Source: Candidatus Zhuqueibacterota bacterium
Lineage (GTDB): Bacteria > Zhuqueibacterota > Zhuqueibacteria > Thermofontimicrobiales > Thiofontviventaceae
NCBI GenBank assembly: GCA_014729735.1
Contig: WJJN01000117.1
Span: forward strand, 1-37,151
Reading direction: 5' to 3'
DNA: 37,151 nucleotides
This document shows, in pieces, positions 1,128-23,217 of the stretch. How positions within the stretch are numbered: the first letter of the stretch is position 1; the number at the start of each line of letters is the position of its first letter. The notes below the pieces were generated by a model. That model ran no database searches, was not told where the DNA came from, and saw only the letters and a program-made list of their open reading frames with translations. Both the position numbers and the translations under genes were made by a program.

Positions 1128-1230
1128 TCTCTAAATAACCCGCTTCAAGATATCATTCCAATATTTTAAAAAAAATTAATTTTTTTGTCAGGGTATATCC
1201 AATCTCAGGGGTATAACAGGTAACATATCC

Positions 1231-1246
1231 ACAAATTATAATTTGT
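1231..1246. promoter_or_regulatory. perfect 16-bp palindrome ACAAATTATAATTTGT, 3 nt before the fecR-like start
   Basis: Read directly: the sequence equals its own reverse complement. It lies in the unusually long 122-bp sigma/anti-sigma spacer. It is AT-rich, so chance is not excluded. Confidence 0.25.
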
Positions 1247-1249
1247 AAT

Positions 1250-2338: not shown

Positions 2339-2348
2339 GAGTTAAATT

Positions 2349-5300: not shown

Positions 5301-5615
5301 GCTGATGTTGTGGGTAATGTTTCACTTGGTTATGATATTGGTGGCTTTTCTGCCAGATTGTCATTTTACTATCAGGGAAATACACTTGCCAGAGCTGATC
5401 GGGTTTTCACAATCCAGGATAATTATCGGGATAATATCAAAAGATGGGATCTTAAAATAAGACAAAAGGTAACTCCGGATCTTGAGCTATTTTTTGATCT
5501 TAATAATATCACCGATCATCCTGATGTTACCAAATACAATATCGTTGATTACCTGAGAAGCCAGGAAAACTACGGCTGGCAAGGTCATTTGGGAATTCGG
5601 TACACTTTTCAATAA
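2349..5615 (+). CDS. TonB-dependent receptor/transducer with N-terminal STN signalling and CarboxypepD_reg domains
   Basis: 1088 aa with a signal peptide. The STN domain is IPLESALSSISEKSMVKLNY...QLAVVP. The CarboxypepD_reg domain is GKISGSVEDGKTGDVLPGANVFIEG...YTVTAKYIGY. The plug is NAAESVGRLPGVSIQRSGGEADGIVIRGM, followed by a long barrel ending GIRYTFQ. GGAG sits 7 nt before the ATG, which is 10 nt after the fecR stop. Confidence 0.92.
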   Translation: MRLLLVVTLIVLLFSVAFAGEKFAFLDLNQYGGKKVPTTLLNRISVNFNNIPLESALSSISEKSMVKLNYSRDLIPINKRVTIQMDEVHAMEALLAVLNNTGTTLKITQAGQLAVVPQSAVNQRKASGSGRGKISGSVEDGKTGDVLPGANVFIEGTSLGAATNLEGYFYIPNLLPGTYTVTAKYIGYASQSKTVQIMPGENVKLNFELEYVVVEGDEVTVTAQAEGQMAAINQQISSARIMNVVASDRIQEIPDANAAESVGRLPGVSIQRSGGEADGIVIRGMADGFNTVSIDGVKMPSTSESRGVGLAFISPNMLDGIELTKALTPDMEGDATGGAVNFILKDAPVGLQVQLALKGGYSGLNSEFGMPKGDLSVSNRFFNNRLGVFAQLSAHQDDRSTDYFDANYRHATGYIEDQPGEAKISSFALRNIDRIRNRYGFTLVFDYRLPGGKISIKNFASQLDEIRTIRESRADPQSSLGGVDFLHQRVESKRRNISNSLSGMHSLFGGQFDWTLAHSLTESETPTSWGIEFESNYSAYTGTLDDLMLPPDQIADMFDYDLSRVRWNSDWVNYNADEAREISSEINYEIPFNISKSLSGKFKVGAKFRQHNRESDSEHWLSDVQGAGGYDEQGRLLRDEVFGDRDLDLVNDVYPALSNFLDESVEASDLLEKHGFLMLSNHNDMKKIADFYSVSKDSELPAYMKEYLPHDTNDYENVSRYGAGYLMTQLNIGKKLTFIPGVRFEHVDHEFDTYYINYRSHMHRYKREQGYKKELGSKQSNAKWLPMFHLRYRLTGWSDIRFAATKTLRRPNYLDYSPQLYLNNQGSSISRGNPELKVQTSQNYDLHASFYSNMVGLFTVGGFYKEIDDLIYRVSSTVHWGDSIPNLPSEEFLGYNPDRDFIGWSLSEPINNKPTAYVRGIEFEWQTRFWYLPSPFNGLVLNTNIAFIDSETKYPRYVATGGTPPFYRDKVDSLIYRSNQLIGQADVVGNVSLGYDIGGFSARLSFYYQGNTLARADRVFTIQDNYRDNIKRWDLKIRQKVTPDLELFFDLNNITDHPDVTKYNIVDYLRSQENYGWQGHLGIRYTFQ

Positions 5616-5845
5616 AGCATTGATATTTGCGCAGGCAAGGAGGTGGTAATGAGTAGGAGCAGTGACATGGCATTGAATACAATGTACAGAAAACTTAAGA
5701 AAGTGAATTCGAAAGGAGGTGTTAAAAAAAACAGGTTTCAATTAATCTATAAGTAATTTGCTATGGAGTAATATGGAGTTACGAATAAGTTAAAGATGTT
5801 GATAATGATTAATTCACAATAACTCAGAATTTGAGGAGGAATGTT

Positions 5846-7540: not shown

Positions 7541-7551
7541 CAGAGCGATAG

Positions 7552-7588
7552 ACAGGTGCAGGTATTCGATTATCTGCACCTGTTTTTT
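7552..7588 (+). terminator. Rho-independent terminator
   Basis: Perfect 10-bp stem: ACAGGTGCAG (7552-7561) pairs with CTGCACCTGT (7574-7583). The loop is 12 nt and the stem is followed by TTTTT. It starts 12 nt after the stop at 7540. Confidence 0.75.
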
Positions 7589-7629: not shown

Positions 7630-9165
7630 ATGCCAATGAATCGTCGTAAATTTTTGGGCACACTAGCAGCGGGCACGGGTGGATTGCTTCTCACAAAATG
7701 TAAGGAACCGGAGTTCGCACGGCGTCGCGATTTGTTTAATAACAAAAGTGCTGACAAAATTGTCCCCGGAAACAAAAATCATATTTATCCTGAGTCGACT
7801 GTTGGGATTGTTCAATCCGAAAAAAATCATGTAGAAGATTTAAATTACGAAGATATTCGTAAAATGGTACATCAGGCTATAGAATACGCCGGCGGATTTG
7901 AAAATCTGATTCATAACAACGATATTGTGGTTTTAAAGCCCAATATCATGTGTCTCTGGATAAATTCCACCGGTCAAAAACTAATACCGGATGCAAACGG
8001 CGTAACAGCGGATTGGCGTGTGACACGGGCGGTTGTGGAGCTCGTCCGTAAATATAACCCGGATGGGAAGGTTTTTATCATTGAAAGCTCTGCTTTTCAA
8101 TGCACAGAACTTGCAATGATGGAACTTAAATACATGCCGGATTATATCCCCGGCGTCGATGCCTTTCTCTGTCTGGAGAATTGCAGCGGTAATTATGAAG
8201 AATGGGATTCCTCAAAACTGAGTAGAGTAACTTTGCCAAATGGCGTTGGATTGTACCCGGATTCGATGAAACCCAACCTTTCACCGGAATTTTATTTGAA
8301 CAGACTATACTACGAAGCCGATGTTGTAATCAGCTTGCCGGTACTCAAAAATCACACGCATACAGGCATTACAGGTGCGCTAAAGAATGTGTCCGTGGGT
8401 GCAAGTCCGCCGAATATTTACGGCAAATTGATGGAGCCATCGGTAACAAGCGCCACGCAAAAAATTGTGTCCCAATTCGGCAGGCGGCTGGAATTGAACC
8501 GGTGGTATAAAATCAATCACGATCCGATTTATCTGGATACGTGGATTCACGACTATTTTCTGTGCCGACCGGTGGATTTCGTCGTCACCGATGGTTTGAA
8601 CGGATTGCAGAACGGACCCGATATATCGAAATTAGTGAAACAAAAAAGCCTGGCTGAAAACCTGATGAACATGCGAACGATTTTAGCCGGCAGAGATGCG
8701 CTGGCTGTGGACACTGTTCATGCGCTCTTGATTGGAATGGATCCGGCGAAAATCGAGCATCTTGTGTTGCTGTCGAATAAGGGGATCGGTTGTACTGATC
8801 CTGCACGAATTAAAATTCAGGGTAAAATGGTTCATCAATTGAAAAAATCCTTTGAAATGAATTATGAACGTTCATCGCAAAAAATGTATTCAAAATTCAA
8901 TTCACCGGAATTCAAGGTAAAATCAGCATTTTATTCGGATGATAAATTAAATATTGAACTTGGCGCGAATCCGAGAGAGATTTCCAAAATTGAAATTGCT
9001 GTGAACGGTCAATTGCTGGAGACTGCTGTCGTCGGGGGATACGACACTATTTCGCTGGATATCGGTCCGCTTCATTCAGAACAGAATCAACTGGATATTT
9101 ACGCGTATGATTGCTACTTGAATTGCGCGCATAAGTCCCAAAAAATCAAGCGCAGTATTGCCTGA
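7630..9165 (+). CDS. Tat-leader DUF362 domain protein with C-terminal beta-sandwich extension
   Basis: Twin-arginine leader MPMNRRKFLGTLAAGTGGLLLTKC. DUF362 core motifs are VVLKPN, ADVVISLPVLKNHTHTGITGALKN, VTDGLNGLQNGP and ILAGRDALAVDTVHALLIGMDP. A ~100-aa C-terminal Ig-like tail follows. Confidence 0.82.
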   Translation: MPMNRRKFLGTLAAGTGGLLLTKCKEPEFARRRDLFNNKSADKIVPGNKNHIYPESTVGIVQSEKNHVEDLNYEDIRKMVHQAIEYAGGFENLIHNNDIVVLKPNIMCLWINSTGQKLIPDANGVTADWRVTRAVVELVRKYNPDGKVFIIESSAFQCTELAMMELKYMPDYIPGVDAFLCLENCSGNYEEWDSSKLSRVTLPNGVGLYPDSMKPNLSPEFYLNRLYYEADVVISLPVLKNHTHTGITGALKNVSVGASPPNIYGKLMEPSVTSATQKIVSQFGRRLELNRWYKINHDPIYLDTWIHDYFLCRPVDFVVTDGLNGLQNGPDISKLVKQKSLAENLMNMRTILAGRDALAVDTVHALLIGMDPAKIEHLVLLSNKGIGCTDPARIKIQGKMVHQLKKSFEMNYERSSQKMYSKFNSPEFKVKSAFYSDDKLNIELGANPREISKIEIAVNGQLLETAVVGGYDTISLDIGPLHSEQNQLDIYAYDCYLNCAHKSQKIKRSIA

Positions 9166-9213
9166 TCAACAATACATCGCTTTTAAAATCCTCTTATTCG
9201 TGAAGGAATAAAT

Positions 9214-10866
9214 ATGAAAAGACGTACTTTTATAAAACATGCTGCCACGATTGGCGCCGCGGCAGTCATAAATCCCGTTGATATTTTTGGTGAAATATTT
9301 CGGGGAAATTCCGGTTATTTCAGGATTCACCCATTCATTGAAAATAACCCGGATGCTGTCTTTATCATGAAAACAGACGTTCAACAAAAATCCGACTCAA
9401 CCGCTATCAAACAAATCGGTCTTGAATTCGGGCGCACAGTTTTTCTGGGATCGGATGCTGCGGAAAATAGAGTCCCTCTTACTCATAATATTGTTATTAA
9501 ACCGAATTTGACGCGGCGTTACAGAGAAAATCCGCAATATACGATTGAAGGGACCATGGGAATCGTCACAGACTCGAGTTTCATCGAAGGCATAATCGAA
9601 AGCATGAAGGAATTGGGACTGGCAGGTAATCAATTTTATTTACGGGAAGTAAATTGTGATGACATCGAATGGGAGCACGGCGGTTTTTGGGACGTGTGCG
9701 AGCGAACCGGTGCAGACCTGCAGAATTTCGATATCAATATCGAGGATATGGATCCTGAAAACGTTCACTGGGTTGATGTTCCGGATGGTATCTATTTCAA
9801 TAGACTCCCTTATGTCGCACCTGTGAATACACCTGATAGCTGGCTACTCAATATTGCGAAATTTAAAGCGCACGGCATGGGATTAACTTTATGCGCAAAA
9901 AACCTGCAGGGCACGATTGTCAAGGAGTATCAGGGGCACTGCCGTTCACTCAGCTCTTATGTGAGAAAGCAGGGCATTTCCAAAGACAATATTCGCCCGA
10001 CTGCCGAAAGCGACGTGCAAAATAATTATGAACGTCACAAATCAGACATCCCGCGCTGGGATAAGCCGAACGGACCGTTAAGCGGACAACGAATGGAAAC
10101 ATGGGCTACTCGTTGCCTGGATAATAACTCTGTCACAAAACCCGGATTGCATATCATCGAGGGAATTTATGGCAGGAATGGTAATTTTATCAACGGACCT
10201 CACGCTTCGGACGGCAGTATTGATCTGAACAACAAAAATAATCTTGCAAAAGATTTCTTGTCAAATATTCTCATCTTTGGCAAAAATCCGTTTTATGTAG
10301 ATATTGTCGGTCATTGGCTCGGTGGGCACGAGCCAGGGAATATCGGACTTTTTCATGTGGCGATGGAACGGGGCTTTATCGATTATCTGAATCCAATGGA
10401 TATTCCGGTATATGAATGGAAATCCGATGGCTCGGCAATCAAGACACCTCTGACCAATTTTGAAAAAACGCCATTGGTGACATATTATCTACAAAGAAAT
10501 TATGACGGACAGGATGAATCTTACTGGCATTTAATGGATGAGCCTTTTGACTATAGCAAATTTTCAAAGGTCAATGTCGCACAGAAAAATGCAGAAAAAC
10601 CGGGCACATTCATACTCGCTCAAAATTATCCGAATCCGTTTAACAATAGTACGTCCATACAATACTCGATTCCGAAAAACGGACACGTTCGTATCGATGT
10701 CATTAATTCATCCGGGCAGGTTGTGGATCAGTTGGTGAATCGATTTCATGCGGGAGGAAATTACATGGTCAACTGGAACACGGCACACGTCGCATCGGGA
10801 ACGTATTTTTATCGTTTTTCTTATGATGGATTTCACGAAGTCAAAAAAATGGTGTTGCTGAGATAG
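9214..10866 (+). CDS. DUF362 domain protein with Tat leader and T9SS C-terminal sorting domain
   Basis: Leader MKRRTFIKHAATIGAAAV. DUF362 motifs are IVIKPNLT, IAKFKAHGMGLTLCAKNLQG, IIEGIYGRNGNF and LIFGKNPFYVDIVGHWLGGHEP. It ends in a T9SS CTD. Confidence 0.78.
   Translation: MKRRTFIKHAATIGAAAVINPVDIFGEIFRGNSGYFRIHPFIENNPDAVFIMKTDVQQKSDSTAIKQIGLEFGRTVFLGSDAAENRVPLTHNIVIKPNLTRRYRENPQYTIEGTMGIVTDSSFIEGIIESMKELGLAGNQFYLREVNCDDIEWEHGGFWDVCERTGADLQNFDINIEDMDPENVHWVDVPDGIYFNRLPYVAPVNTPDSWLLNIAKFKAHGMGLTLCAKNLQGTIVKEYQGHCRSLSSYVRKQGISKDNIRPTAESDVQNNYERHKSDIPRWDKPNGPLSGQRMETWATRCLDNNSVTKPGLHIIEGIYGRNGNFINGPHASDGSIDLNNKNNLAKDFLSNILIFGKNPFYVDIVGHWLGGHEPGNIGLFHVAMERGFIDYLNPMDIPVYEWKSDGSAIKTPLTNFEKTPLVTYYLQRNYDGQDESYWHLMDEPFDYSKFSKVNVAQKNAEKPGTFILAQNYPNPFNNSTSIQYSIPKNGHVRIDVINSSGQVVDQLVNRFHAGGNYMVNWNTAHVASGTYFYRFSYDGFHEVKKMVLLR
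10609..10863 (+). other. T9SS type-A C-terminal sorting domain, copy 2
   Basis: FILAQNYPNPFNNSTSIQYSIPKNGHVRIDVINSSGQVVDQLV...ASGTYFYRFSYDGFHEVKKMVLLR. Confidence 0.85.
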
Positions 10867-11006: not shown

Positions 11007-12539
11007 ATGCAAAAAAAACTTCAATATCTAATTGTTTTACATTTATTTTTTGTCTCTATTATGAATGCTCAGCACACTGGCGAGGCTTTCTTTGAAAATT
11101 TATCTGATCTGCCTTATCTTTATCAGGATATCCGGGCAATTTATCTCACCAGTTATGATCGCAGCGGTGGAAATGATGATGGTTTTCACGGTACGTATTC
11201 CGAAATTTACAGAGACGAAAATGGCGAGCATGTCATTTTTGATGAAGAGGGCTCAGGCTGCGTTTACGGCGTATACTTTACTCATCCGGCGAATTTCACT
11301 CTCGGTAGACTGAAATTTTATTTTCACAATGAAAAAGCATTGCGTATCGATGTGGACGCAGACAGCTTTTTCGCCCGCAGATACGCACCATTTATTTATC
11401 CATTGGTTTATGACCGATATATATCATCCGGTGGATTCTCGTCTGTTGTGCCGATTTCATTTTCACAAGGATTGAAGATCACTACGGAACGAAAACCCGG
11501 ATTTTATGGCATTTACTATCATTTGATAAAGGGACGGAAAATTACATCTTATCAGAAAAAGAGCGATTTCAAAAACTTGATTGATTTGTTCCAAAAGTGC
11601 GGCGCAGATCCTAAACAAAATGCAGAGGTCGATTCTGTGTACGAAACAGTGGTAGATCTAGAGGGTGCAAACGTTGGTGAAATACGGCATGTATTTTCAT
11701 ATCAGGCAGAGGGCGTGGTGCAATTCATTCGCCTGAATCCGCTGTTTACACCGGACGCATTCGCGCTGAATCATACCAATTTAAAAATTACTTTTGATGA
11801 TGACACATCAACCACATTTTCCGTACCCATCGGCTCGTTTTTCGGTTCCGGTCTGGGCGAAACCGAGGTCAGGAGCCTGTTCGTCGGCATGTCGCCGTCG
11901 GGATCATATTATTGTTATTTCCCGATGCCTTTTCAAAACAGCCTGAAAATCGAACTGGAAAACATGAAATACAATGCAAGCGATTATCCAAAAACAATTG
12001 AGCAGTATTATTTTGAGATCGGTATCTCCACGAAATTTCTCAAAAATAGAACTGACGCCGAAATTGGGTATTTCGGTGCCAGCTACAGCCATGCCTATCC
12101 GGCGACAGGCGGTGATGACTATCGGCTGTTCGATTACACTGGTCGCGGAGCCGTATTAGGTCATGTGGTTACGATCGAGCCGGTGCATGATGATGTAAAA
12201 AAATGGTGGGAAGGCGATTTGCGAATGTGGATTGATGGTGAGACGGAGCCATCATTTCATGGCACAGGACATGAGGAAGATTTGTCCCAGGGTGGCTGGT
12301 CCAGCTTTTGGCTGATGAATCCGTTTACGCTGCCGCTTTTTGGGGAGCCAAAAACCACAGGACATCGGATGATTGACGGGCAGACAAACGCCAGCACCAC
12401 AACGTACCGTTTTTATCCGGGCACGATTCCGTTCTCAACATCAATGAAAATCAGTATCGAACATGGCACGAAAAATAACCGGGCAGCGAATTATTCGTCG
12501 GTGGTTTATTATTACTATGATCCGGTGCAGACAAAGTAG
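11007..12539 (+). CDS. DUF2961 / glycoside hydrolase family 172 protein, secreted
   Basis: Signal peptide MQKKLQYLIVLHLFFVSIMNA. Family-typical motifs are SYDRSGGNDDG near the N-terminus and WWEGDLRMWIDGETEPSFHGTGHEED near the C-terminus. Confidence 0.82.
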   Translation: MQKKLQYLIVLHLFFVSIMNAQHTGEAFFENLSDLPYLYQDIRAIYLTSYDRSGGNDDGFHGTYSEIYRDENGEHVIFDEEGSGCVYGVYFTHPANFTLGRLKFYFHNEKALRIDVDADSFFARRYAPFIYPLVYDRYISSGGFSSVVPISFSQGLKITTERKPGFYGIYYHLIKGRKITSYQKKSDFKNLIDLFQKCGADPKQNAEVDSVYETVVDLEGANVGEIRHVFSYQAEGVVQFIRLNPLFTPDAFALNHTNLKITFDDDTSTTFSVPIGSFFGSGLGETEVRSLFVGMSPSGSYYCYFPMPFQNSLKIELENMKYNASDYPKTIEQYYFEIGISTKFLKNRTDAEIGYFGASYSHAYPATGGDDYRLFDYTGRGAVLGHVVTIEPVHDDVKKWWEGDLRMWIDGETEPSFHGTGHEEDLSQGGWSSFWLMNPFTLPLFGEPKTTGHRMIDGQTNASTTTYRFYPGTIPFSTSMKISIEHGTKNNRAANYSSVVYYYYDPVQTK

Positions 12540-12659
12540 ACCCGGGGTTGGTCTACTCGGATATAAAGACCGACGATCCGGAGTGAATCGCCTTTATGCG
12601 ATTCATTTCCACCCTGGCGAGATAAAAGATTGGAGTCTAACTGTCAGTATTCAAAAAAT

Positions 12660-12674
12660 GAAAATTCAAACCAA
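12660..12674 (+). promoter_or_regulatory. leader motif GAAAAT-N2-AAACCAA, 11 nt upstream of the GH20 start
   Basis: Read directly. The same bipartite pattern is at 17329-17344 and 32829-32845. Confidence 0.3.
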
Positions 12675-12685
12675 GATTTAAAAAC

Positions 12686-14839
12686 ATGATAAAAGCAGTA
12701 AAGCTTTTTTTACTATCAATAATCTTTTTGTCTACATATAGCGCTTCGGCAAAAGCCGATTTCTTCGAATCATTTAAAATAATTCCATCGCCGCAAAGGA
12801 TTGAGTTCTTTAAGGGAGATAGTCTAAAATTCAATGAATTGACAGGCATCTATTTAGAAAATATCGATCAGCGTCCGGTGATGGGATCCATTCTTTCGGG
12901 ATTACCACAAACAGAGCAGGCGCAGCGACAGCATATTCTGATATTACAGCGAACAGAGCAGAATGTACCGGAATCTTCTGAGGGCTATATTTTGCAGATA
13001 CGAGACAGCAATATCACCATTTCAGCGCGTAGCGAAGCCGGACTATTTTACGGCTGCCAGACGCTGGAACAGCTTTTGGAAGATGCACGGGATCAGCACA
13101 TTGCAATTCCAGCCTGCAAAATCATCGATTATCCGGTAATGAACTACCGGGCGATTCATATCGATGTGAAGCATCATCTGGACCGGATGCGCTATTATTA
13201 TGATATTGTTGATCGGGCAGCGCGCTACAAAATCAATGCGATTATTTTTGAATTCGAGGATAAGCTTGGCTATCGCCGGCGACCGCTGATTGCTGCGCCT
13301 CATGGGATCAGTATCGAGGAGATGGCGGCACTTACACGATATGCCCGTGAACGTCGCATCGAAATTTCACCGCTGGTTCAGGGATTGGGTCATGCGACGT
13401 TTATTTTGAAACATGGCAAATACAGGCACCTCAGAGATAATCCCACCAGTCCGTGGACCTTCTGTCCGATGAATGAAGAGACGTACGAGCTGCAATTCGA
13501 TCTTTATCGCGACGCCATCGAAGCCACGCCCGGTTCCCGGTTTTTGCATATCGGAGGCGATGAAGTTGAGTTGGGTCACAGTTCACTATCCCGGGAATTT
13601 CTAAAAACACACGATGAAGCTGATTTATATTTGCACTGGTTGAAAACGATCACCGATTTTGTGAAACGTCAGGGGCGAACGCCGATTTTATGGGATGACA
13701 TGCCATTCAAATTCGCCGGGCTCTGGCAGTCTGTGGAACATGGCAGGGATGAAACCGAGGAAGAAGCAGCAACGGTCTGGAATAACAATTTATCAACATT
13801 GAATCAAATGGTGCAGCGGTTTCCGCAGGATGCGATTTTTGTCAGATGGCATTACGGGACAGCGCATACTGCACGCTATCCCGGAATGCTTCGGGTGCTG
13901 GACTGGTACCGCAGTATGGGATTGCAGGCATGGATCGCAACAGCAGCGCAGACCAGTAATGAATTGTTTCCGCATAAAGATCATGCCATTGCCACTAAAA
14001 AGTTCATCGATGTGGCGACAGAATACGGGATACCCGGCAATATTTGTACAGCCTGGGATGATGCATCTCCTCATTTTGAAACGTATTGGTTCGGATTCAT
14101 TGCTGCGGCAGAATATAGCTGGCAACCTGACGGGAGAACGCTGCCTGAATTTGAAGACGCCTACCAACAGCGGGAATTTGGTCCGTTCGCTGAAAATGTG
14201 CTCCGGGTTTATAAAAATATGTGTGATGCAGCAAAATTCTGGTCCCGGGCATTTTACAAATCCTCGTTTCGCCGTAAAAATCAAAATGTTCTGTATCACG
14301 ATTTCAGCACACCAACTGCATTAAGTTTTGAACAATACAAACAACGATTCATTGATGTGCCCGATTTATCACAGCCCGGCTCCTGGAAACAATCATATCA
14401 TGATCGGCTTGAAGGTGCCAGAGAAATTCTGAAGAAGTGTCGACAAAATCACGAATGGATTCGACATCTTAAGAACAAATCAATCCGAAACCGCTATCAC
14501 TGGCAGATTTGCGACGCGATCAATGATTTTTCTGCAACACCTGCACAGTTGTTATTAGCGCTCCAAAAAATGGACACTGCAAATACCGAACAGCGCAAAG
14601 CCGGAGTACAACCAGTGATGAATGCATTCGAGCAATTTGATGCAGCCTGGGAAAATTTGAAAATGATTTTCGGGAAAACGCGTTTTCTAACATACCCGCA
14701 AAATTACGTTCAGGATCGTTATTCGCATTTTGCCAGTCAGGCAGAAGATATTTCATTCATGATTCAAACCGAGAAGTTATTCCACCCGCTGGTGCGGGAG
14801 TGGTTGCGTGAGAATGGATATCTATCGGGTGATTTCTAA
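12686..14839 (+). CDS. GH20 beta-N-acetylhexosaminidase, secreted
   Basis: Signal peptide MIKAVKLFLLSIIFLSTYSASA. GLFYGCQTLEQLL and YRAIHIDVKHH mark the start of the catalytic TIM barrel. The catalytic H-x-G-G-D-E motif is FLHIGGDEV. Confidence 0.88.
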   Translation: MIKAVKLFLLSIIFLSTYSASAKADFFESFKIIPSPQRIEFFKGDSLKFNELTGIYLENIDQRPVMGSILSGLPQTEQAQRQHILILQRTEQNVPESSEGYILQIRDSNITISARSEAGLFYGCQTLEQLLEDARDQHIAIPACKIIDYPVMNYRAIHIDVKHHLDRMRYYYDIVDRAARYKINAIIFEFEDKLGYRRRPLIAAPHGISIEEMAALTRYARERRIEISPLVQGLGHATFILKHGKYRHLRDNPTSPWTFCPMNEETYELQFDLYRDAIEATPGSRFLHIGGDEVELGHSSLSREFLKTHDEADLYLHWLKTITDFVKRQGRTPILWDDMPFKFAGLWQSVEHGRDETEEEAATVWNNNLSTLNQMVQRFPQDAIFVRWHYGTAHTARYPGMLRVLDWYRSMGLQAWIATAAQTSNELFPHKDHAIATKKFIDVATEYGIPGNICTAWDDASPHFETYWFGFIAAAEYSWQPDGRTLPEFEDAYQQREFGPFAENVLRVYKNMCDAAKFWSRAFYKSSFRRKNQNVLYHDFSTPTALSFEQYKQRFIDVPDLSQPGSWKQSYHDRLEGAREILKKCRQNHEWIRHLKNKSIRNRYHWQICDAINDFSATPAQLLLALQKMDTANTEQRKAGVQPVMNAFEQFDAAWENLKMIFGKTRFLTYPQNYVQDRYSHFASQAEDISFMIQTEKLFHPLVREWLRENGYLSGDF

Positions 14840-14909
14840 ATTTCGGATATTGCATGATTTTATTCATTGAGAATTATCTTTCTAAACCGGTGTAAATGAG
14901 GAGACTATT

Positions 14910-17210
14910 ATGAGACCGATATTTCAAAATTTTATGTTGTTTCTTGCAGTAAGCGTATTGTTGAACTGTTCACAAAAAACAGATCTCGTACCGCTAAATT
15001 GGATTCATTTATCCAGCCAACATGCCGCGCTTCAAAAGCCGTCGACATCGACGCAGCAAACCGCCTCGCTTATTCTTGATATTGATAAAGACGGATTGAA
15101 TGATTTTGTAATTTGCGGCAGAAAAGCACAGCCATCCGTGTGCTGGTATCAACGCATCGCCACCGGATGGAAAAAATATGTCATCGATGCTGAGATTCTT
15201 CCCATCGAAGCAGGTGGCACATTTACGGATGTCGACGGAGACGGGGATCAGGATATTATCATGGGAGGAGACACGTCTACTAATGAATTGTGGTGGTGGG
15301 AAAATCCGTACCCGGAATTCGATCCCGCGGTGACATGGATACGGCGGCAGATAAAGAACTCAGGTGACAGGCAATCGCACGATCAGTTATGTGGTGATTT
15401 TGACGGTGATGGCAGGGATGAGTTAGTGTTCTGGAATCAGCGGGGAAAGAAATTGTATTTCTCTGAAATCCCTGAAAACCCCGGAACTGATGCGCCCTGG
15501 GATATCGAAGTCATGTGGTCATGGAATGTTGATTTCAAGTATGAGGGACTGGCAAAGGGCGATATTGATGGTGACGGTATCGATGACGTCGTTGGTGGCG
15601 GACGCTGGTTTAAAAGAAGCGATGAAAATTGGGAAGTGCATGTCGTTGATGCGGATTATGGCAGCTCCCGCTCTGCGGTTGCGGATTTGGTTCGGGGCGA
15701 CAGACCGGAAATCGTTTTAGCCTCCGGTGATATGGTGGGACCATTAAATGTGTACCAGTGGGACGGAAGTAAATGGTTGAAAACGACGCTCGTTGATTCG
15801 GTAGATCACGGGCACAGTCTGGATGTTGTGGACATGAATGGTGACGGATATTGTGATATTTTTTGTGCTGAAATGCGGTTGAGCGGGCGAAATCCTGACT
15901 CGCGCATGTACATTTTTCTGGGCGATGGAAACGGAAATTTCGTTCAGACCGAAGTCGCACAGGGATATGGCAACCACGAATCCCGTGTGGCTGATCTGGA
16001 TGGGGACGGTGATGTCGATATTTTGGGAAAACCATACAATTGGAATTCTCCGCGGGTGGATATCTGGCTGAATGAACCGCTTGCCAAAGATCTGGAATTA
16101 ACACAATGGGAACGTCTTGTGATCGACACAAAGAAACCGTACAAAAGTGTTTTTATTTACCCCGGTGATCTGGATAATGACGGATTGATTGATATTGCTT
16201 CCGGCAGTTGGTGGTATAAAAATCCCGGAACCACCAGTGGCACCTGGGAGAGAAAAATGATTGGCGAACCTTTGTACAATCTGGGCTTAATTTACGATTT
16301 TGATGGTGATGGCGATTTGGATGTATTCGGAACTCAGGAACGGGAAAAAGATAATACCGCACTGTTTGCCTGGGCGCAAAATAATGGCGATGGCACTTTT
16401 AAGCTTTATGAAAATATTGAACCGGGTAAAGGAGATTTTCTGCAAGGAACAGATGTGGTGACACTGATCCGTAAGCAGGATGAATTGAAAAATTCGCCTC
16501 CCTGGTATAGTGATTTAAAAATCGTACTTTCCTGGCATAAGGGCGGGATGGGCGTGCAGGCTGTTACTGTACCGGCAGAACCGACATTGGAAACATGGGC
16601 ATGGGGAGTTATCAGCGAGGTGTCGCAGGATGAGCAGCTCACCGTGGCGGATATCGACGGCGATCGGTTGCAGGATATTCATCTGGGAACCAGGTGGCTG
16701 AAATGTGAAGATCGCAACGGCGATCAATGGTCGCTGCACACCATCAATGAAATTGAACAATTGCCGGATCGAAATCGGATTGCGGATATGGACAAGGACG
16801 GTCGGCTGGATGTGGTGATCGGCTTTGAGACCGCGGATATTCACGGGAAATTAGCGTGGTATGAGCAAGGTGAAGTTCCCACTGATTTATGGACAGAACA
16901 TGTTATCGATAGTCTGCCGGGACGCGCGATGAGCCTTGATGTGGCTGATATGGACCTCGACGGAGATATGGATATTGTGGTAGGTGAACATTTTTCTGAT
17001 CTGAAAAAACCTGAGGAAGCAGACCTGTTTGTTTACGAAAATCTGAATGGCGACGCGCTGTCCTGGCAGAAACATCTCATTTACACCGGAGACGAGCACC
17101 ACGATGGTACCCAGATATGCGACATCGACGCTGATGGCGATTTGGATATCATTTCCATCGGCTGGAAACACCCGCGGGTGGTTTTGTATGAAAATAAGTC
17201 CATTGATTAG
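14910..17210 (+). CDS. FG-GAP/VCBS repeat (beta-propeller) lipoprotein
   Basis: Lipobox-like LLNCS. More than 10 Ca-binding-type repeats are present (DVDGDGDQDII, DFDGDGRDELV, DIDGDGIDDVV, DMNGDGYCDIF, DLDGDGDVDIL, DFDGDGDLDVF, DMDLDGDMDIV, DIDADGDLDII). GAGGAG sits 6 nt before the ATG. Confidence 0.85.
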   Translation: MRPIFQNFMLFLAVSVLLNCSQKTDLVPLNWIHLSSQHAALQKPSTSTQQTASLILDIDKDGLNDFVICGRKAQPSVCWYQRIATGWKKYVIDAEILPIEAGGTFTDVDGDGDQDIIMGGDTSTNELWWWENPYPEFDPAVTWIRRQIKNSGDRQSHDQLCGDFDGDGRDELVFWNQRGKKLYFSEIPENPGTDAPWDIEVMWSWNVDFKYEGLAKGDIDGDGIDDVVGGGRWFKRSDENWEVHVVDADYGSSRSAVADLVRGDRPEIVLASGDMVGPLNVYQWDGSKWLKTTLVDSVDHGHSLDVVDMNGDGYCDIFCAEMRLSGRNPDSRMYIFLGDGNGNFVQTEVAQGYGNHESRVADLDGDGDVDILGKPYNWNSPRVDIWLNEPLAKDLELTQWERLVIDTKKPYKSVFIYPGDLDNDGLIDIASGSWWYKNPGTTSGTWERKMIGEPLYNLGLIYDFDGDGDLDVFGTQEREKDNTALFAWAQNNGDGTFKLYENIEPGKGDFLQGTDVVTLIRKQDELKNSPPWYSDLKIVLSWHKGGMGVQAVTVPAEPTLETWAWGVISEVSQDEQLTVADIDGDRLQDIHLGTRWLKCEDRNGDQWSLHTINEIEQLPDRNRIADMDKDGRLDVVIGFETADIHGKLAWYEQGEVPTDLWTEHVIDSLPGRAMSLDVADMDLDGDMDIVVGEHFSDLKKPEEADLFVYENLNGDALSWQKHLIYTGDEHHDGTQICDIDADGDLDIISIGWKHPRVVLYENKSID

Positions 17211-17318
17211 AAATATTAAAGAGAAAATGACATTCTCTTGAGTTTTGGCGGTTCATGGAAAGGCTTTTTATGCAATGCTACTGAAAGCCATAAAGGGATT
17301 TCACTCCGATCACGTTCG

Positions 17319-17344
17319 AATTTAAATCGAAAATGTTAAACCAA
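17319..17344 (+). promoter_or_regulatory. conserved leader motif AATTTAAATCGAAAAT-N3-AAACCAA upstream of sulfatase
   Basis: The 16-nt block is identical to 32819-32834 and the AAACCAA block is shared. It ends 17 nt before the ATG at 17362. TTCGAATTTAAAT (17316-17328) recurs at 30662-30674. Confidence 0.4.
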
Positions 17345-17361
17345 TTGAGGGAATTTAAATA

Positions 17362-18795
17362 ATGTCACTAAAACAAACCAGAAGAGAATTCATTCGAAAT
17401 ATCAGTCACATTTCTGTTGGGACTTTGGCTGCTGGTACGACGATAAGTCTACTATCTTCATGTGGTAATAAAGCTAAAAAACGCAAACCAAATATCATTT
17501 ACATCCTTGCGGATGACCTGGGATATGGTGATCTGGGTTGCTACGGACAAGAACGGATTCAAACCCCGAATATCGACCGGCTCGCAGCAGAGGGGATTCG
17601 GTTTACACAACATTATGCCGGCAGCACAGTGTGTGCGCCCTCTCGCTGTTCTCTAATGACCGGACTGCATACGGGTCATGCCGCAATTCGTGGGAATTCA
17701 AGGGTTGATCCAATGGGACAGAAGCCACTTCCGGCAGAAGAAACTACTGTGGCAGATGTGCTTAAAAAAGCCGGTTACGCAACTGCTCTCATTGGCAAAT
17801 GGGGACTTGGCGGACCGGATACGGAAGGGGAACCGGGGAAACATGGTTTTGATTACTTTTTCGGCTACCTGTGCCAGCGCCATGCACATAACTATTACCC
17901 GGAATTCCTGTTCCGAAATACGGAACGCGTTCCTCTATCCAATGTTGTTGATAATGATCGTACAGACGGCGCCGGCGAAGCAACAGTCAAAAAAGAATAT
18001 GCTCACGATCTGATTATGGACGACGCATTATCATACATCGAAAAAAATCAGAAAAATCCGTTCTTCCTCTATTTATCGCCCACTATACCACATGCGAATA
18101 ATGAAGCCGGTGATCATGGTATGGAAGTCCCCACTGATGCGCCGTATTCAGAAAAGGACTGGCGCCAGCAGGAGAAAAATTTCGCCGCAATGGTCACCCG
18201 ACTGGATGAAGGCGTCGGCAAAATCATGAAAAAATTAAAACAACTGGGACTGGATCATGATACTATCGTTCTCTTTACAAGTGATAACGGACCGCATCGC
18301 GAGGGCGGGCATGACCCGGACTTCTTTGACAGCAACGGAAAATTAAGAGGAATAAAACGGGATTTATACGAAGGCGGCATTCGCGTGCCACTAATTGCTC
18401 GCTGGAAAGGAGTTATCGAGCCAGATCAGGTGAGCGATCACGTGTCAGCGTTCTGGGATTTTCTACCAACGGCTGCCGAAATTGCAGGAACAAGTTTTCC
18501 CAATAATATCGATGGAATTTCATTTTTACCGACATTACTCAATAAGTCCCAAAAAAAGCACGACCATTTTTACTGGGAATTTCATGAAGGAGAAAGTTCT
18601 CACCAGGCTGTGCGCAGCGCTAAGTGGAAGGGCGTGCGTTTCAGTCCAAAAGGAAAATTGGAATTATATGATTTATCTGCGGATGTTGAAGAGAAAAATA
18701 ATGTTGCGGATCAACATCCGGAGATCGTTCAGAAATTGGAGAAGACATTGGCAGAAGCCCACACCGAAAGTGAACTGTGGAAACTGAAACAATGA
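17362..18795 (+). CDS. S1-family (formylglycine-dependent, Cys-type) sulfatase with Tat leader and lipobox
   Basis: Motifs: PNIIYILADDLGYGDLGCYG, the FGly motif CAPSRCSLMTG (Cys codon 17632-17634), GKWGLGG and SDNGPH. The leader is KQTRREFIRN...LLSSCG. Confidence 0.93.
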   Translation: MSLKQTRREFIRNISHISVGTLAAGTTISLLSSCGNKAKKRKPNIIYILADDLGYGDLGCYGQERIQTPNIDRLAAEGIRFTQHYAGSTVCAPSRCSLMTGLHTGHAAIRGNSRVDPMGQKPLPAEETTVADVLKKAGYATALIGKWGLGGPDTEGEPGKHGFDYFFGYLCQRHAHNYYPEFLFRNTERVPLSNVVDNDRTDGAGEATVKKEYAHDLIMDDALSYIEKNQKNPFFLYLSPTIPHANNEAGDHGMEVPTDAPYSEKDWRQQEKNFAAMVTRLDEGVGKIMKKLKQLGLDHDTIVLFTSDNGPHREGGHDPDFFDSNGKLRGIKRDLYEGGIRVPLIARWKGVIEPDQVSDHVSAFWDFLPTAAEIAGTSFPNNIDGISFLPTLLNKSQKKHDHFYWEFHEGESSHQAVRSAKWKGVRFSPKGKLELYDLSADVEEKNNVADQHPEIVQKLEKTLAEAHTESELWKLKQ

Positions 18796-21161
18796 AAAAG
18801 AAATTCGTTTTTAGAATCTTTATCTCGATGCTGATCATTCTGTTCGTCAATGCCTGTGATCGTGCACCTGATAGTTCGCTATTTGTCGAAACCAAAAATA
18901 GCATTCATTTTCGGACTGTAAGCAGTTCACTGGTGATCGATAAAAATCCCTGGAAATTGACTGTATTCGATAAAAGCGGTAAAATGCAGACCAGCGAAGT
19001 AGCGCCGCCGGCTTTTAAAATAAATGATAAATGGATTACAGTTGGGAATGTGGGGTATATCGAACAGAAAAATGATCGGATGGCGGAATTGAAACTGCAA
19101 CTACGCAATGGCGCAGATGCTTCCGCAACTGTCGAAAAAATGAATAATCATGTATTTAAAATTAAAATAAAAACTGAAGCGCCGGTGACGGATATTCGGG
19201 GATCATTTTCGCTGGCAAATGAGGAAGAGGTTTATGGATTCGGCGAGATGTGGAACGGTCGGGTCGCGCAACGGGGACAGAAAATCAGGATTTGGGATCA
19301 AACCGGAACGCCGGATGAATGCGCGTACATGCCGTATTACGTAACGACAAATAATTATGCATTCTTCCTGAACTATGGCGGGCTGGTTAACTTTGACGTG
19401 GGAGCGAGTCAGTCTGACCAAATTGTCTATGAAGCGCCGACATCGAGGTTTGATGTGACGATTTTCTCCGGCGAAAGTATTGCCGGCACGGTAAATCATT
19501 TTGTTCAGCACGTCGGCAAACCGTTGATGCCTCCCCGATGGGCGTTCAAACCGTGGTACTGGTTGATGGGATCTGCCTGGGATGCAAATGATATGCAGCA
19601 GAGCGGACATGCGCATGTCATCGCAGCACAGAAATATCAGGAGATGGACATTCCGGTTTCCGTCACCTGGTTCGAGCCCAAATGGCAGACCGCCCGCAAT
19701 TCATTCATCACCCCCAAATCCTTTAGCTCCGATGTGAGCGCAGTGATCGATACGTTGCACAAAATGGGAATAAAAGTCCTGGGCTGGACTGCTCCGTACA
19801 CGACTTCTGCCGCTCCGAATTGGAACGCTGCCATTGAAAATGGATTTCTCGTCAAAAAACCGGACGGCGAGCTGGTCGATCCGAAAGTGACGACTTCCGG
19901 CGAAGTGGTCGCCGGTGGATATCATTACATCGATTTTACCAATCCTGCTGCCCGAAGCTGGTGGCAGAGCGAAATCGCCAAAGGGCTGGATGTCGGACTG
20001 GATGGCTATAAAATGGATTCAGGACAGTATCTGCCGGAAGATGCCATTTTACACAACGGCGAATTGGGAAAGGATTATCATAATTCGTACGGTTTGTACT
20101 ATAAAATGACATTTTATGAAATTCTATCCGAACGATTGGACAATGATTTTATGATGCTGCCCCGCGCTGCCTGGGTTGGCTCTCAGAAATATACGAATTT
20201 CAAATGGCCCGGAGATTTATCTGCCAGTTTTGCTGAAAACGGATTGCCATCGTCGGTCTATTCGAGCCTGTCTCTGACGTTCTGTGGGATGCCGTTTCTT
20301 TCTACGGATATTGGTGGCTTTGAAAATCGTCCGCCCACGGAGCATGTTTGGATTCGCTGGGCACAGTTCGGTACGTTTCTGCCGGGGATGCAAACACTGG
20401 CAATGCCGTACTGGTACTCAGATGAAGCGATTCAGCATTACCGTTATCTTTCCTGGCTGCACACGGAGCTGGTTCCATTCTGGATGAGTCTTGCGCATGA
20501 AGCGCATGAGACCGGCGCCCCACTTGTGCGTCCGCTGGTATGGACGTTTCAGGATGATAAAAAAAGCTGGCATATCAAAGATCAGTTCACAGTCGGTGAT
20601 GCGTTTTTGGTCGCACCCGTAATCACTCCCGAACACCGCCGACAAGTCTACCTGCCACCGGGTAACTGGTACAATTTCAGCGATGATGCTAAAAAATGGC
20701 AGGGATCGGCTGAATTGAGCTGGGAGGGCGATTTATGGCAATTCCCGGTATACATTCGGGAAGGCGCCATCCTTCCACTGGAGGTGCGGCGGGATATTAC
20801 CGGATTTGGCTGGCGTGAATCAAAAAATTATATCACCATCGCTATCTGGCCGGATAGGAATAATGCCTCAACCTTTGTTTTGCATGATCAGGAAAAACCG
20901 GTCAATTTTACCATGACTCAATCAAACGACGATTGGAAAATTAGCTGGTCGCCATCTGAAAAGGATTATCTGTTCCGAATTCACGGTGAATATGTGAATC
21001 CACAGCAGTTAGTTTACAATGACAATGAATTAAAAGAGTTCGATGAATTAATGACGTTTCGTAAGAGCCATGAAGATGGCTGGTATTTTGACACGAATCA
21101 AAATAAACTCTGGATTAGAAAAACCGCGACGAATAAATCGACGACACTTTGGGTAAAATGA
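18792..21161 (+). CDS. GH31 glycoside hydrolase (alpha-glycosidase), lipoprotein
   Basis: The preferred start, ATG 18792, overlaps the sulfatase stop as ATGA and gives MKKKFVFRIFISMLIILFVNAC. GH31 motifs are GLDGYKMDSGQY (nucleophile region, compare YicI KTDFGE) and KWPGDLSASF...GMPFLSTDIGGF. Confidence 0.86.
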   Translation: MKKKFVFRIFISMLIILFVNACDRAPDSSLFVETKNSIHFRTVSSSLVIDKNPWKLTVFDKSGKMQTSEVAPPAFKINDKWITVGNVGYIEQKNDRMAELKLQLRNGADASATVEKMNNHVFKIKIKTEAPVTDIRGSFSLANEEEVYGFGEMWNGRVAQRGQKIRIWDQTGTPDECAYMPYYVTTNNYAFFLNYGGLVNFDVGASQSDQIVYEAPTSRFDVTIFSGESIAGTVNHFVQHVGKPLMPPRWAFKPWYWLMGSAWDANDMQQSGHAHVIAAQKYQEMDIPVSVTWFEPKWQTARNSFITPKSFSSDVSAVIDTLHKMGIKVLGWTAPYTTSAAPNWNAAIENGFLVKKPDGELVDPKVTTSGEVVAGGYHYIDFTNPAARSWWQSEIAKGLDVGLDGYKMDSGQYLPEDAILHNGELGKDYHNSYGLYYKMTFYEILSERLDNDFMMLPRAAWVGSQKYTNFKWPGDLSASFAENGLPSSVYSSLSLTFCGMPFLSTDIGGFENRPPTEHVWIRWAQFGTFLPGMQTLAMPYWYSDEAIQHYRYLSWLHTELVPFWMSLAHEAHETGAPLVRPLVWTFQDDKKSWHIKDQFTVGDAFLVAPVITPEHRRQVYLPPGNWYNFSDDAKKWQGSAELSWEGDLWQFPVYIREGAILPLEVRRDITGFGWRESKNYITIAIWPDRNNASTFVLHDQEKPVNFTMTQSNDDWKISWSPSEKDYLFRIHGEYVNPQQLVYNDNELKEFDELMTFRKSHEDGWYFDTNQNKLWIRKTATNKSTTLWVK

Positions 21162-21174
21162 AAGATTCAATTCA

Positions 21175-23217
21175 ATGAAAAAAACAGATATATTGTATAT
21201 TTTAATCATCACCGGATTTATCATTTCAGCATTTAAAAATAGTTCGGCAGAGGATTATGAGAGAATAAAGGCGAAATGGCTAAAACAGGGAATTGTGGAT
21301 GCCGGAGGAAGTCACGAACCGTACATGTTTCGGATTCGCCGTGGTGGCTTCAATCTGCGCACTGACGAATGGGAACACTATCTGGCAGAGCACTCGGAAG
21401 AGAATGTCAAACGGCTGTCCGATTTAGGTGTGAATGTCTATCATACCCATTTTTACAAGGGATTCGGTATGGCGGCTGAAATGGAAGAAATGGAGCGCAC
21501 AAAGGAACTGGCGGAGATTGTACACAAATACGGCATGAAGATCGACACGTATCTCCAGTGGGGTTCCATTATGTATGAAACGTTCTTTGATGAAATTCCA
21601 GCCGCAAGAAACTGGATCGAGGTGGACCAGTTCGGAGACCCCATTTTGCGCTATTCGAACCGGCAGTTTTTCCGATATGCGCCCTGCATCAATAATGAAA
21701 ATTATAAAGCGTATTTGAAAAAAGTCATTCGCTATGCTGTGGAAGAGGTGAAGACCGATTTTATTCATTTTGATAATTTTGGCGGACTTAAAGAGCCAAA
21801 ATCCTGTCATTGTCCGGTATGTACGCAAAAGTTTCGCGAATACCTTAAAGAGAAGTATGATGAGGAAGGTCTCAAACAACGATTCGGTTTTTCGAATCTG
21901 AATAATATACTGCCACCCCAAGCCGATCGATGGGCTCACAACTGGGATTATTCCGCCATCGTGGATCCGGTGATTCAGGAATGGATTGAATTTCGATGCA
22001 TCAGTTTGAGTAATGCGCTCCGGGAAATGGCACAATATATCAAAAGCCTGAATCCGGAAACTGTAGTCGAAGTCAATTTTAATCCGGGACTTTCAGGATG
22101 GAATCTTGCCCTGCGCGGGAAATCGCCGAAATACATTCTCCCCAACACCGAGGTTGTTTGGACTGAAGAACGGAATACTGCCGAAATGACCGAAGATGGT
22201 AGATTGGTCTCTGAAATTCGTTCCTATAAAATGGCGCGCATGTTTGACAATATCGCATTTACCTGGGTCGGTAAAAGTGAGCTTTCACTGGCATGCGGGC
22301 TGGCGTTTAATCAAACAATGGGATATATCGGAGAGCTATCTTTCCCGCCGATGGTGTTGCGCTATCTCGATTTCTACAAGCAAAACAGGCACCATTTCAC
22401 AGTAACAACCGATGTTGCCGATGTTGCGATCTTGCGATCTTTTGCAACGATGACGTACAATTTTTTCGCCGGCGTAGTGTCGACAACTCTCTTTGAACAA
22501 ACACTGCTGCAAGCCAAAATTCCGTTTGATATTATTTTTGATCAGCATTTAAATGACCTGTCACAATATAAAGTGCTCGTACTGGCGAATCAAACCTGTC
22601 TGTCTGATGAGCAACTCGGTGTCGTTCGACAATTTGTGGAAAATGGTGGTGGATTAGTTTTTACGGAAAATACATCACTTTACAACGAACGGGTGTGGAC
22701 TCGACCGCAGTTGGGATTGGCAGATTTATTTGACTCTGAAACAGCGCCAACGCCTGATTCAGAGGAAAAGGAAATCAGGGAATCGGTCAGTAAGGGACGA
22801 GCAGTGTATATTCCGATCGTACAACCCGCGAAACCGCTGCCCCGGGACCGGGATTCATTCACCAGTAAGCACTGGTATTTACCGGTAAATTGGCGACAAT
22901 TAGCCGATGCAGTTCGATGGGCGGGAAATGAAGATTTTTCAGTTGTGGTGGAAGGTCCGACTTCGCTGCTCATGAATTTAGTCGAGCAAAAAAAAACCGG
23001 CAATCTGATACTGCATCTGCTGAATTTCAATGCAAATAAACCGGAAAAAGATATCCCGGTTCAAATTACAAAAAATCAGAACAAGCGGATAAGCCGAATC
23101 AGTTATAAATCCCCGGATGAAAAAGAAGAGCAGAAAATAATGTTTACGGACGAGGAAGAAAAATTGACTTTTACAGTACCAGGTGTGAGTGTGTATGGTA
23201 TTGTTGTGATTGAATAA
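21175..23217 (+). CDS. GH42-like protein (TIM barrel with Zn-Cys cluster + trimerisation-type domain), secreted; acid/base position not conserved
   Basis: Signal peptide MKKTDILYILIITGFIISAF. APCINNENYKAY...FDNFGGLKEPKSCHCPVCTQKFREYLKEKY parallels the Thermus A4 beta-galactosidase segment YCFSSPVYRE...[30 protein letters not shown] (recalled from memory). YKVLVLANQTCLSDEQLGVVRQFVENGGGLVF matches the GH42 domain B pattern. Confidence 0.6.
   Translation: MKKTDILYILIITGFIISAFKNSSAEDYERIKAKWLKQGIVDAGGSHEPYMFRIRRGGFNLRTDEWEHYLAEHSEENVKRLSDLGVNVYHTHFYKGFGMAAEMEEMERTKELAEIVHKYGMKIDTYLQWGSIMYETFFDEIPAARNWIEVDQFGDPILRYSNRQFFRYAPCINNENYKAYLKKVIRYAVEEVKTDFIHFDNFGGLKEPKSCHCPVCTQKFREYLKEKYDEEGLKQRFGFSNLNNILPPQADRWAHNWDYSAIVDPVIQEWIEFRCISLSNALREMAQYIKSLNPETVVEVNFNPGLSGWNLALRGKSPKYILPNTEVVWTEERNTAEMTEDGRLVSEIRSYKMARMFDNIAFTWVGKSELSLACGLAFNQTMGYIGELSFPPMVLRYLDFYKQNRHHFTVTTDVADVAILRSFATMTYNFFAGVVSTTLFEQTLLQAKIPFDIIFDQHLNDLSQYKVLVLANQTCLSDEQLGVVRQFVENGGGLVFTENTSLYNERVWTRPQLGLADLFDSETAPTPDSEEKEIRESVSKGRAVYIPIVQPAKPLPRDRDSFTSKHWYLPVNWRQLADAVRWAGNEDFSVVVEGPTSLLMNLVEQKKTGNLILHLLNFNANKPEKDIPVQITKNQNKRISRISYKSPDEKEEQKIMFTDEEEKLTFTVPGVSVYGIVVIE

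Follow-up and report, generated by a model that had tools for sequence, protein, structure and literature searches.

Two adjacent genes on a 37,151-bp contig from an uncultured candidate division KSB1 bacterium encode exported proteins of the DUF362 family (PF04015). They are open reading frame (ORF) A, of 511 residues, and ORF B, of 550 residues, and the whole contig is referred to below as the window. From their family membership, their export signals, the fold and a loop that recall the lactate racemase LarA, and a link between leader type and a neighboring permease, we infer cofactor loading, catalysis and a glycan substrate. A and B may be enzymes that fold and acquire a metal or cofactor in the cytoplasm, are exported by the twin-arginine translocation (Tat) pathway, and carry out chemistry on glycans, a reading to which we give about an even chance. 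DUF362 is an uncharacterized family, often described as ferredoxin-fused and cytoplasmic. An earlier reading of this DNA (the original prediction) had held that the family has no established function, and a literature search for DUF362 and PF04015 likewise found no paper that assigns one.

Membership of the family is clear for both proteins. Against a PF04015 cut-off of 24 bits, A scores 72.5 bits (E=6.4e-20, residues 100–363) and B scores 53.1 bits (E=5.7e-14, residues 93–331). Among NCBIfam models, A has only a weak sub-threshold match, to Npun_F2552. The twin-arginine leaders MPMNRRKFLGTLAAGTGGLLLTKC of A and MKRRTFIKHAATIGAAAVINP... of B exceed the cut-off of 16.7 for NCBIfam TIGR01409 (TAT_signal_seq) with 19.5 and 21.1 bits, respectively, and fall slightly under the cut-off of 22.7 for Pfam PF10518 (18.3 and 18.1). 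In A, Cys24 closes the hydrophobic region of the leader (LLLTKC); because this cysteine is also found in the closest Tat-type orthologues (P0002–P0005 and P0008), A may be a Tat lipoprotein. Neither protein contains the CxxCxxC iron–sulfur motif or matches a Fer4 Pfam family. At its C terminus A carries an immunoglobulin/fibronectin type III (Ig/Fn3)-like beta-sandwich and has no sorting domain for the secretion system of type IX (T9SS). B ends in such a domain (PF18962, E=1e-8; TIGR04183, 40.4 bits against a cut-off of 23), with the motif NYPNPFN. The profile searches thus bear out what had been read from the letters: a DUF362 core in both genes, Tat leaders around NRRKFLG and KRRTFIK, extra C-terminal modules and no ferredoxin motif. 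A and B lie in two large exported DUF362 subfamilies and not in the cytoplasmic ferredoxin-fused type. The suggestion that they form a new family did not hold. Both are 100% identical to NCBI entries titled 'DUF362 domain-containing protein', and extracellular fusions of DUF362 with a carbohydrate-binding module of family 9 (CBM9) and dockerin were pointed out in 2017 in enrichment metagenomes from beaver and moose gut (PMC5742341), so that the family had been seen before.

The two genes are adjacent, as had been stated, but the term 'tandem paralogues' is too strong. A and B are 21% identical (BLASTP E=6e-4) and, as judged from their sequences, are two distinct old subfamilies, not recent tandem duplicates. 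Among 165 loci of relatives, the A and B tandem occurs once, in the source window itself, which rules out a conserved two-gene module. Across this distance, profiles of the two families align with hhalign on KPN, TD, E, K-x-H...K-N, [D/E]G, GP and D, and the core motifs quoted in the original prediction (VVLKPN in A and IVIKPN in B; LKNHTHTGITGALKN and FKAHGMGLTLCAKN) are present, at columns that do not vary in either family alignment. Within the shared loop, two lysines of family A (K240 and K252) are invariant and its H242 is conserved at 90% or more; the family B residues K218, H220, K229 and N230 are all invariant. Retention of the same charged and polar residues in both subfamilies at 21% identity favors the reading of A and B as enzymes.

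The location of a putative active site is suggested by the fold. The AlphaFold2 (AF2) models are confident (pLDDT 89.7 for A and 87.2 for B), and among PDB folds those of LarA lactate racemases and of LarA-like nickel-pincer enzymes match the A model best (probability 1.0, E from 1e-6 to 1e-4). This match agrees with the placement of DUF362 and DUF2088 in one Pfam clan, CL0471 (PMC11770544). In a local hhalign alignment (E=4.4e-5, probability 69%), the segment LPVLKNH242THTGITGALK252N of A falls on EGFIESH174FFAGFSGGRK184S of LarA, the sequence of which was checked against PDB entry 5HUQ. In LarA, His174 of this loop is a catalytic base and Lys184 tethers the nickel-pincer cofactor (PMC11770544). 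H242 and K252 of A align to these two residues with an equal spacing of 10 residues, and H220 and K229 of B correspond to them through the profile alignment of A with B.

Relatives of A connect the export route with a second protein. A search with family A gave 323 matches in KSB1, Gemmatimonadota, Planctomycetota, Bipolaricaulota and Bacillota, and fusions to CBM9, dockerin, thrombospondin-type repeats and T9SS domains indicate that the family is extracytoplasmic. Three types of targeting are found: Tat leaders in the window's clade, signal anchors or Sec-like signals, and a three-helix N-terminal membrane module. The last type comprises DUF362 proteins of ~650 residues with a C-terminal domain (CTD) and the motif WFLIRVIPKPSRAxYPCQRAAFP, and its module has no Pfam match. 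An ArsP_1 permease (PF03773) is encoded within two genes upstream of 15 of the 24 Sec/anchor-type members of family A, compared with 0/14 of the Tat type, 0/15 of the membrane-module type and 0/79 in family B, which is of the Tat type. For the Tat and anchor types the difference gives p=1e-4 by Fisher's test without phylogenetic correction. In a neighbor-joining tree, ArsP-linked genes are spread over many deep branches and Tat leaders mark no fewer than two clades. The permease gene shares the strand of its DUF362 partner and, in the adjacent cases listed, stops 2–40 bp short of the partner's start or runs slightly into it, and the linked permeases keep the cysteine motifs CTYGTVP and VCGGG. 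With 14 matches, ArsP_1 is the only family that stands out among 125 neighbors of family A. One ArsP-linked DUF362 protein (locus L006) carries a dockerin and a T9SS domain and is therefore certainly secreted.

Characterized relatives of PF03773 are organoarsenical exporters (PMC7176098). The mutual exclusion of Tat leader and ArsP_1 fits a factor supplied either before Tat export or through a partner exporter, and on the simplest reading the secreted DUF362 domain would need a thiophilic metal or small cofactor of cytoplasmic origin. That a Tat leader implies loading before export had been part of the original prediction; the exclusion lends it independent support, with loading itself remaining a presumed step. 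We know of no described precedent for a dedicated ArsP-type permease that supplies a Sec-type secreted enzyme. The permease could instead import the reaction product, with Tat leaders reflecting only fast folding or oligomerization. For instance, the ArsP_1–DUF362 pair of locus L089 sits inside a cytoplasmic sugar-catabolic operon (PfkB, aldolase, AP_endonuc_2 and GFO_IDH_MocA), and these PF03773 members might transport in either direction. However, product import does not predict the mutual exclusion with Tat leaders, the characterized members of the family are exporters, and the L089 operon already encodes two transporters of the major facilitator superfamily, all of which makes this alternative improbable.

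Family B is more uniform in its export route. It comprises 2,321 database clusters at 90% identity and has matches in at least 582 species-representative genomes from Ignavibacteriota, KSB1, Calditrichota, Latescibacterota, uncultured Bacteroidales and related groups of the Fibrobacteres–Chlorobi–Bacteroidetes (FCB) group. The T9SS sorting domain inflates whole-library profile counts at E<=1e-10, which are unusable as a family size. Because members are ~45–55% identical over their full length and reduce to ~30–40 full-length representatives at 50% identity, family B is a compact, strongly conserved orthologous group. The expectation that the twin-arginine leader is conserved in orthologues holds here, with 114/120 database homologues (the other six seem to have truncated starts) and 78/79 full-length genome copies; in family A the leader is conserved within A's own clades but is not general, and many relatives use Sec-like or anchor signals. 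Most members of family B also have a T9SS domain. T9SS cargo is described in a review as using Sec signal peptides (PMC9251779), an account from which family B, with Tat leader and T9SS domain conserved together, departs. Some genomes carry several copies: loci L074, L037 and L063 each have two or three B-type genes, and the Latescibacterota metagenome-assembled genome (MAG) JAWLHT01 has them on at least four contigs.

In 79 B-type genome loci, ORFs were called and neighbors were clustered and annotated, and the 134 immediate neighbors match 152 Pfam families. Only two partners recur: CBM9 proteins at 19/79 loci (12 adjacent) and Reg_prop beta-propeller proteins at 9/79 (8 adjacent). These are secreted, often with T9SS domains, and sometimes fused to each other; neither is encoded in the source window. 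In four Bacteroidales MAGs, a B-type gene lies in a cluster with GFO/IDH/MocA, a PIG-L deacetylase, a Tat-leader protein without a family, two DegT aminotransferases, DUF4432, a ceramidase-like protein, CBM9 and an amino-acid permease. On thin evidence, this cluster resembles an amino-sugar or aminoglycoside-type pathway, with an amino-sugar flavor as in the window. Single contexts in family A include three AP_endonuc_2 genes with a heparinase-like gene, a sulfatase, SusC/D and a sugar-catabolic operon. A loose carbohydrate theme is visible. Carbohydrate modules recur outside the cell as CBM9, dockerin and CTD fusions in family A and as CBM9 neighbors in family B, in support of exported enzymes that may act on glycans.

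The same partners can be read differently. A and B might be non-catalytic exported binding or scaffold proteins, the cleft of which binds a ligand such as a sugar phosphate or metal for sensing, capture or surface assembly with CBM9 and beta-propeller proteins. No activity is known for any DUF362 protein, the only recurrent partners of B are non-enzymatic, and B forms a compact, slowly evolving orthologous group in variable contexts, unlike typical carbohydrate-active enzymes (CAZymes). We consider this unlikely, though not negligible, given the dense invariant Lys, His, Asp and Glu residues common to subfamilies only 21% identical, the equivalent of the LarA catalytic histidine that has been kept, and a conserved use of Tat. 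Such use is typical of cofactor-containing enzymes.

If A and B are cytoplasm-loaded enzymes, both would fold in the cytoplasm, take up a metal or small cofactor there, and cross the inner membrane through the Tat pathway in the loaded state. A would probably stay membrane- or lipid-anchored with its Ig-like tail, and B would be handed to the T9SS, to end at the cell surface or beyond it. We expect the active site in the cleft equivalent to that of LarA, lined by the residues shared between the two families. Most likely, A and B would perform a non-hydrolytic step (such as isomerization, epimerization or a redox-assisted step) on the glycan or on released sugars. Among exported DUF362 proteins, those of the Tat type would load the factor before export, and for those of the Sec type the partner permease would deliver it.

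Several observations weigh against such an enzyme. Neither an activity nor a ligand has been demonstrated for any DUF362 member, and the neighborhoods are too heterogeneous for a substrate to be read from them. The link between leader and permease rests on statistics that ignore kinship, and the many relatives of A exported by Sec mean that any cofactor must there be loadable outside the cytoplasm. TM-scores between A and LarA are low (~0.3), perhaps on account of inter-domain geometry. LarA His108, its second catalytic histidine, and Arg75, which binds phosphate (PMC11770544), have no counterpart: the position of His108 faces a gap beside the conserved E152 of A, and the DHTR75P loop is replaced by KPN. 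The region of the nickel ligand His200 does not align with A or B; A has invariant Y264 and H297, and in B the histidine H242 stands at K+13. Neither hhalign nor Foldseek gives a LarA signal for family B, and a Foldseek search with the B model returns Ig and T9SS CTD matches and nothing for the core. At the sequence level, A, B and the profile of family A have no relative in the PDB; the only matches are CTD- or FlgD-like tails. With His108 and Arg75 missing, His200 unassignable and no signal from B, A and B resemble LarA in the location of the active site but are not members of the LarA family.

These comparisons also bear on a more specific proposal, in which exported DUF362 proteins are true nickel-pincer nucleotide (NPN/NPMN) enzymes. 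They would form a second LarA-fold class that carries a cytoplasm-made organometallic or nucleotide cofactor, made by LarB/C/E and held on the conserved lysine, to the periplasm or surface by Tat or an ArsP-family exporter. Redox-neutral hydride-shuttle chemistry (epimerization, isomerization or oxidation-assisted cleavage) could then act outside the cytoplasm on glycans, sugars or hydroxy-acids, with family B as a Tat-to-T9SS route. The fold, the shared clan and the equivalents of His174 and Lys184 in A at the same spacing all agree with this proposal, as do the Tat leaders and the thiophilic Cys-motif permease beside Sec-type relatives. In B, His242-Cys243 lie 13–14 residues past the lysine, compared with +16 for LarA His200. 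Hundreds of prokaryotes make NPMN without LarA, and in 2026 use of the cofactor was extended to a non-LarA family with an aldo-keto-reductase fold, in a paper that does not mention DUF362 (PMC13524815). Conversely, neither A nor B matches PF09861/DUF2088 in Pfam at E<=0.01, the Arg75 and His108 equivalents are absent, His200 cannot be aligned, and B has no profile similarity to LarA. Moreover, no larB/C/E-type family is among the 25 families most matched by flanking genes (8–10-kb flanks of relatives and the 37-kb window). A nickel-pincer cofactor in A and B is thus rather unlikely.

The large ORFs of the window are all on the + strand. The hairpin between the upstream T9SS-cargo gene and ORF A is the sole long-stem terminator-like site on the + strand of the whole window. 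It closes that gene, so that ORF A opens a new transcription unit headed by A and B, in keeping with the claim that these are the first genes after the only strong terminator. The genes from the DUF2961/GH172 gene to the GH42-like gene follow with short gaps and are probably co-transcribed with A and B. An extracytoplasmic function (ECF) sigma factor, a FecR-type anti-sigma factor and a TonB-dependent transducer lie upstream, and no SusD-like gene is found in the window. The locus is therefore similar to a polysaccharide utilization locus, with trans-envelope signaling and dependence on T9SS-secreted enzymes; at least three other window proteins besides B bear a T9SS sorting domain. Both sulfatases, which need cytoplasmic maturation, have RR-type leaders followed by Cys, so that four proteins of the locus (A, B and the two sulfatases) are likely Tat substrates and possibly Tat lipoproteins. 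A transporter of the Nramp family inside the glycan-utilization block is unusual for such a locus and could relate to the metal supply of exported enzymes. These sulfatase leaders and the Nramp importer fit a theme of cytoplasmic maturation and metal supply and prove nothing. Coordinates are collected in Table 1.

Table 1. Features of A and B, other features of the window, and loci and structures used for comparison.
Feature	Position, locus or accession	Strand	Basis or remark
ECF sigma factor, FecR-type anti-sigma factor, TonB-dependent transducer with STN domain	582-5615	+	upstream of ORF A
T9SS cargo protein	5831-7540	+	N-terminal region of 480 residues without Pfam/NCBIfam match
Intrinsic-terminator-like hairpin	7550..7585	+	15-bp stem, 6-nt loop, T-run
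ORF A, exported DUF362 protein, subfamily A	7630-9165	+	511 residues
A, twin-arginine leader MPMNRRKFLGTLAAGTGGLLLTKC	7630..7701	+	starts MPMNRRKFLG...; TIGR01409
A, DUF362 catalytic-type core, LarA-like alpha/beta fold	7777..8859	+	residues ~50-410; Pfam, AF2 model, fold search
A, invariant K103-P104-N105	7936..7944	+	after first core strand; family alignment
A, loop K240-N241-H242...K252-N253	8347..8388	+	aligned to LarA His174...Lys184
A, C-terminal Ig/Fn3-like beta-sandwich	8911..9153	+	residues 428-508; confident in model; matches Fn3-like modules of CAZymes
ORF B, exported DUF362 protein, subfamily B	9214-10866	+	550 residues; Tat leader, core, T9SS sorting domain
B, twin-arginine leader MKRRTFIKHAATIGAAAVINP...	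9214..9288	+	starts MKRRTFIK...; TIGR01409
B, DUF362 core and conserved C-terminal extension	9310..10563	+	residues ~33-450; Pfam, AF2 model, profile alignment to family A
B, loop K218-x-H220...K229-N230	9865..9903	+	counterpart of K240...N253 of A
B, H242 (>=90% conserved) and invariant C243	9937-9942	+	after K-x-H...K-N loop
B, type A T9SS C-terminal sorting domain	10627..10863	+	PF18962, TIGR04183
DUF2961/GH172, GH20, FG-GAP protein, Tat-leader sulfatase, GH31, GH42-like protein	11007..23217	+	same strand as A and B, short gaps
Sulfatase	17362-18795		RR-type leader then Cys: MSLKQTRREFIRN...LLSSCG
Nramp-family divalent-metal transporter	24607-25845		between NagA-like amidohydrolase and NagB-like genes
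Two further T9SS cargo proteins, esterase, two family-less proteins, partial sulfatase			downstream of NagB-like protein
Two ORFs of the enzyme block, 420 and 687 residues	32861-34123, 34166-36229		no Pfam/NCBIfam match
Second sulfatase, partial	36251-37150		RR-type leader then Cys: MPLTRREFIKTV...HSHCG
ArsP_1 upstream of Sec/anchor-type DUF362	L005 9054-9980, L006 9095-9982, L089 9076-9990, L094, L096, L101, others
Membrane-module type of family A	L136, L143-L150, L154, L155, L158, L159		no ArsP_1 neighbor
CBM9 and/or Reg_prop T9SS-domain proteins directly beside B-type gene	L021, L057, L082, L085, L074, L076, others		gaps 0 or -3 bp; stop/start codons sometimes overlap
Bacteroidales cluster, four MAGs	L027, L039, L040, L047		at about 3.5-16.7 kb within each locus
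LarA/DUF2088 superfamily structures	PDB 5HUQ, 6C1W, 2YJG, 9Q3J

From this arrangement, the original prediction proposed a sulfatase- or glycosidase-accessory activity dedicated to sulfated N-acetylhexosamine glycans. A and B do head a block that includes GH172, GH20 and two sulfatase genes as well as NagA-like and NagB-like ones; the downstream DUF2961/GH172, GH20, sulfatase, GH31 and partial second sulfatase genes are confirmed by profile matches, and the Bacteroidales cluster provides a second amino-sugar-themed setting with a B-type gene. The predicted enrichment near CAZyme or sulfatase genes largely fails in relatives, however. Homologues of the window's GH172, GH20 and sulfatase genes occur at 1, 1 and 3 of the 79 B-type loci, respectively; sulfatase is not in the top 25 neighbor families of B and accounts for 2/125 neighbors of family A; and the tandem is unique to the source window. 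Since such neighbors are not recurrent, an accessory role is rejected as highly improbable.

A LarA-like active-site loop with conserved His and Lys provides a concrete handle on DUF362, a very large family. The exclusion of Tat leader and permease in family A implies a secreted enzyme that needs a cytoplasm-supplied factor, and family B joins Tat export to type IX secretion across hundreds of species genomes, against the Sec-dependent description. Together, the loop, the Tat-plus-T9SS family and the choice between Tat and permease make the question of the ligand and function of DUF362 directly testable. If the factor is a cofactor like the nickel pincer, its chemistry would reach the cell exterior and take in glycan processing; with a simple metal, A and B would still represent an uncharacterized class of surface enzymes in glycan degraders of the FCB group.

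A and B can be compared with several known systems. They are like other PF04015 proteins in scoring above the gathering cut-off and in the KPN, K-x-H...K-N, [D/E]G...GP and D motifs, and they differ from the ferredoxin-fused subtype in lacking CxxCxxC and in having Tat leaders and extracytoplasmic C-terminal modules. A shares with LarA the fold match, clan CL0471, and the sequence and spacing of the His174...Lys184 loop; LarA is cytoplasmic, whereas A and B are exported, carry extra Ig or CTD domains and have no DUF2088 match. The DUF362–CBM9–dockerin proteins belong to the same domain family and are likewise extracellular and carbohydrate-linked (PMC5742341); A and B have neither of these two modules, and the window has no gene for a CBM9 protein. 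B resembles type A T9SS cargo (TIGR04183/PF18962) in its bona fide C-terminal sorting domain, but B and nearly all of its relatives have a Tat leader in place of the Sec leader of the review (PMC9251779).

Enzymes that are loaded in the cytoplasm and exported by Tat form the last group for comparison. Examples are anSME-matured sulfatases and NAD-bound glycan enzymes of the Gfo/Idh/MocA type, and the Synechocystis pair of MncA (Tat, Mn) and CucA (Sec, Cu) contrasts the two export routes. By analogy, the conserved RR leader of A and B would mark folding, and probably loading, before translocation. Unlike these enzymes, A and B have Sec-type DUF362 relatives with an ArsP-type permease route.

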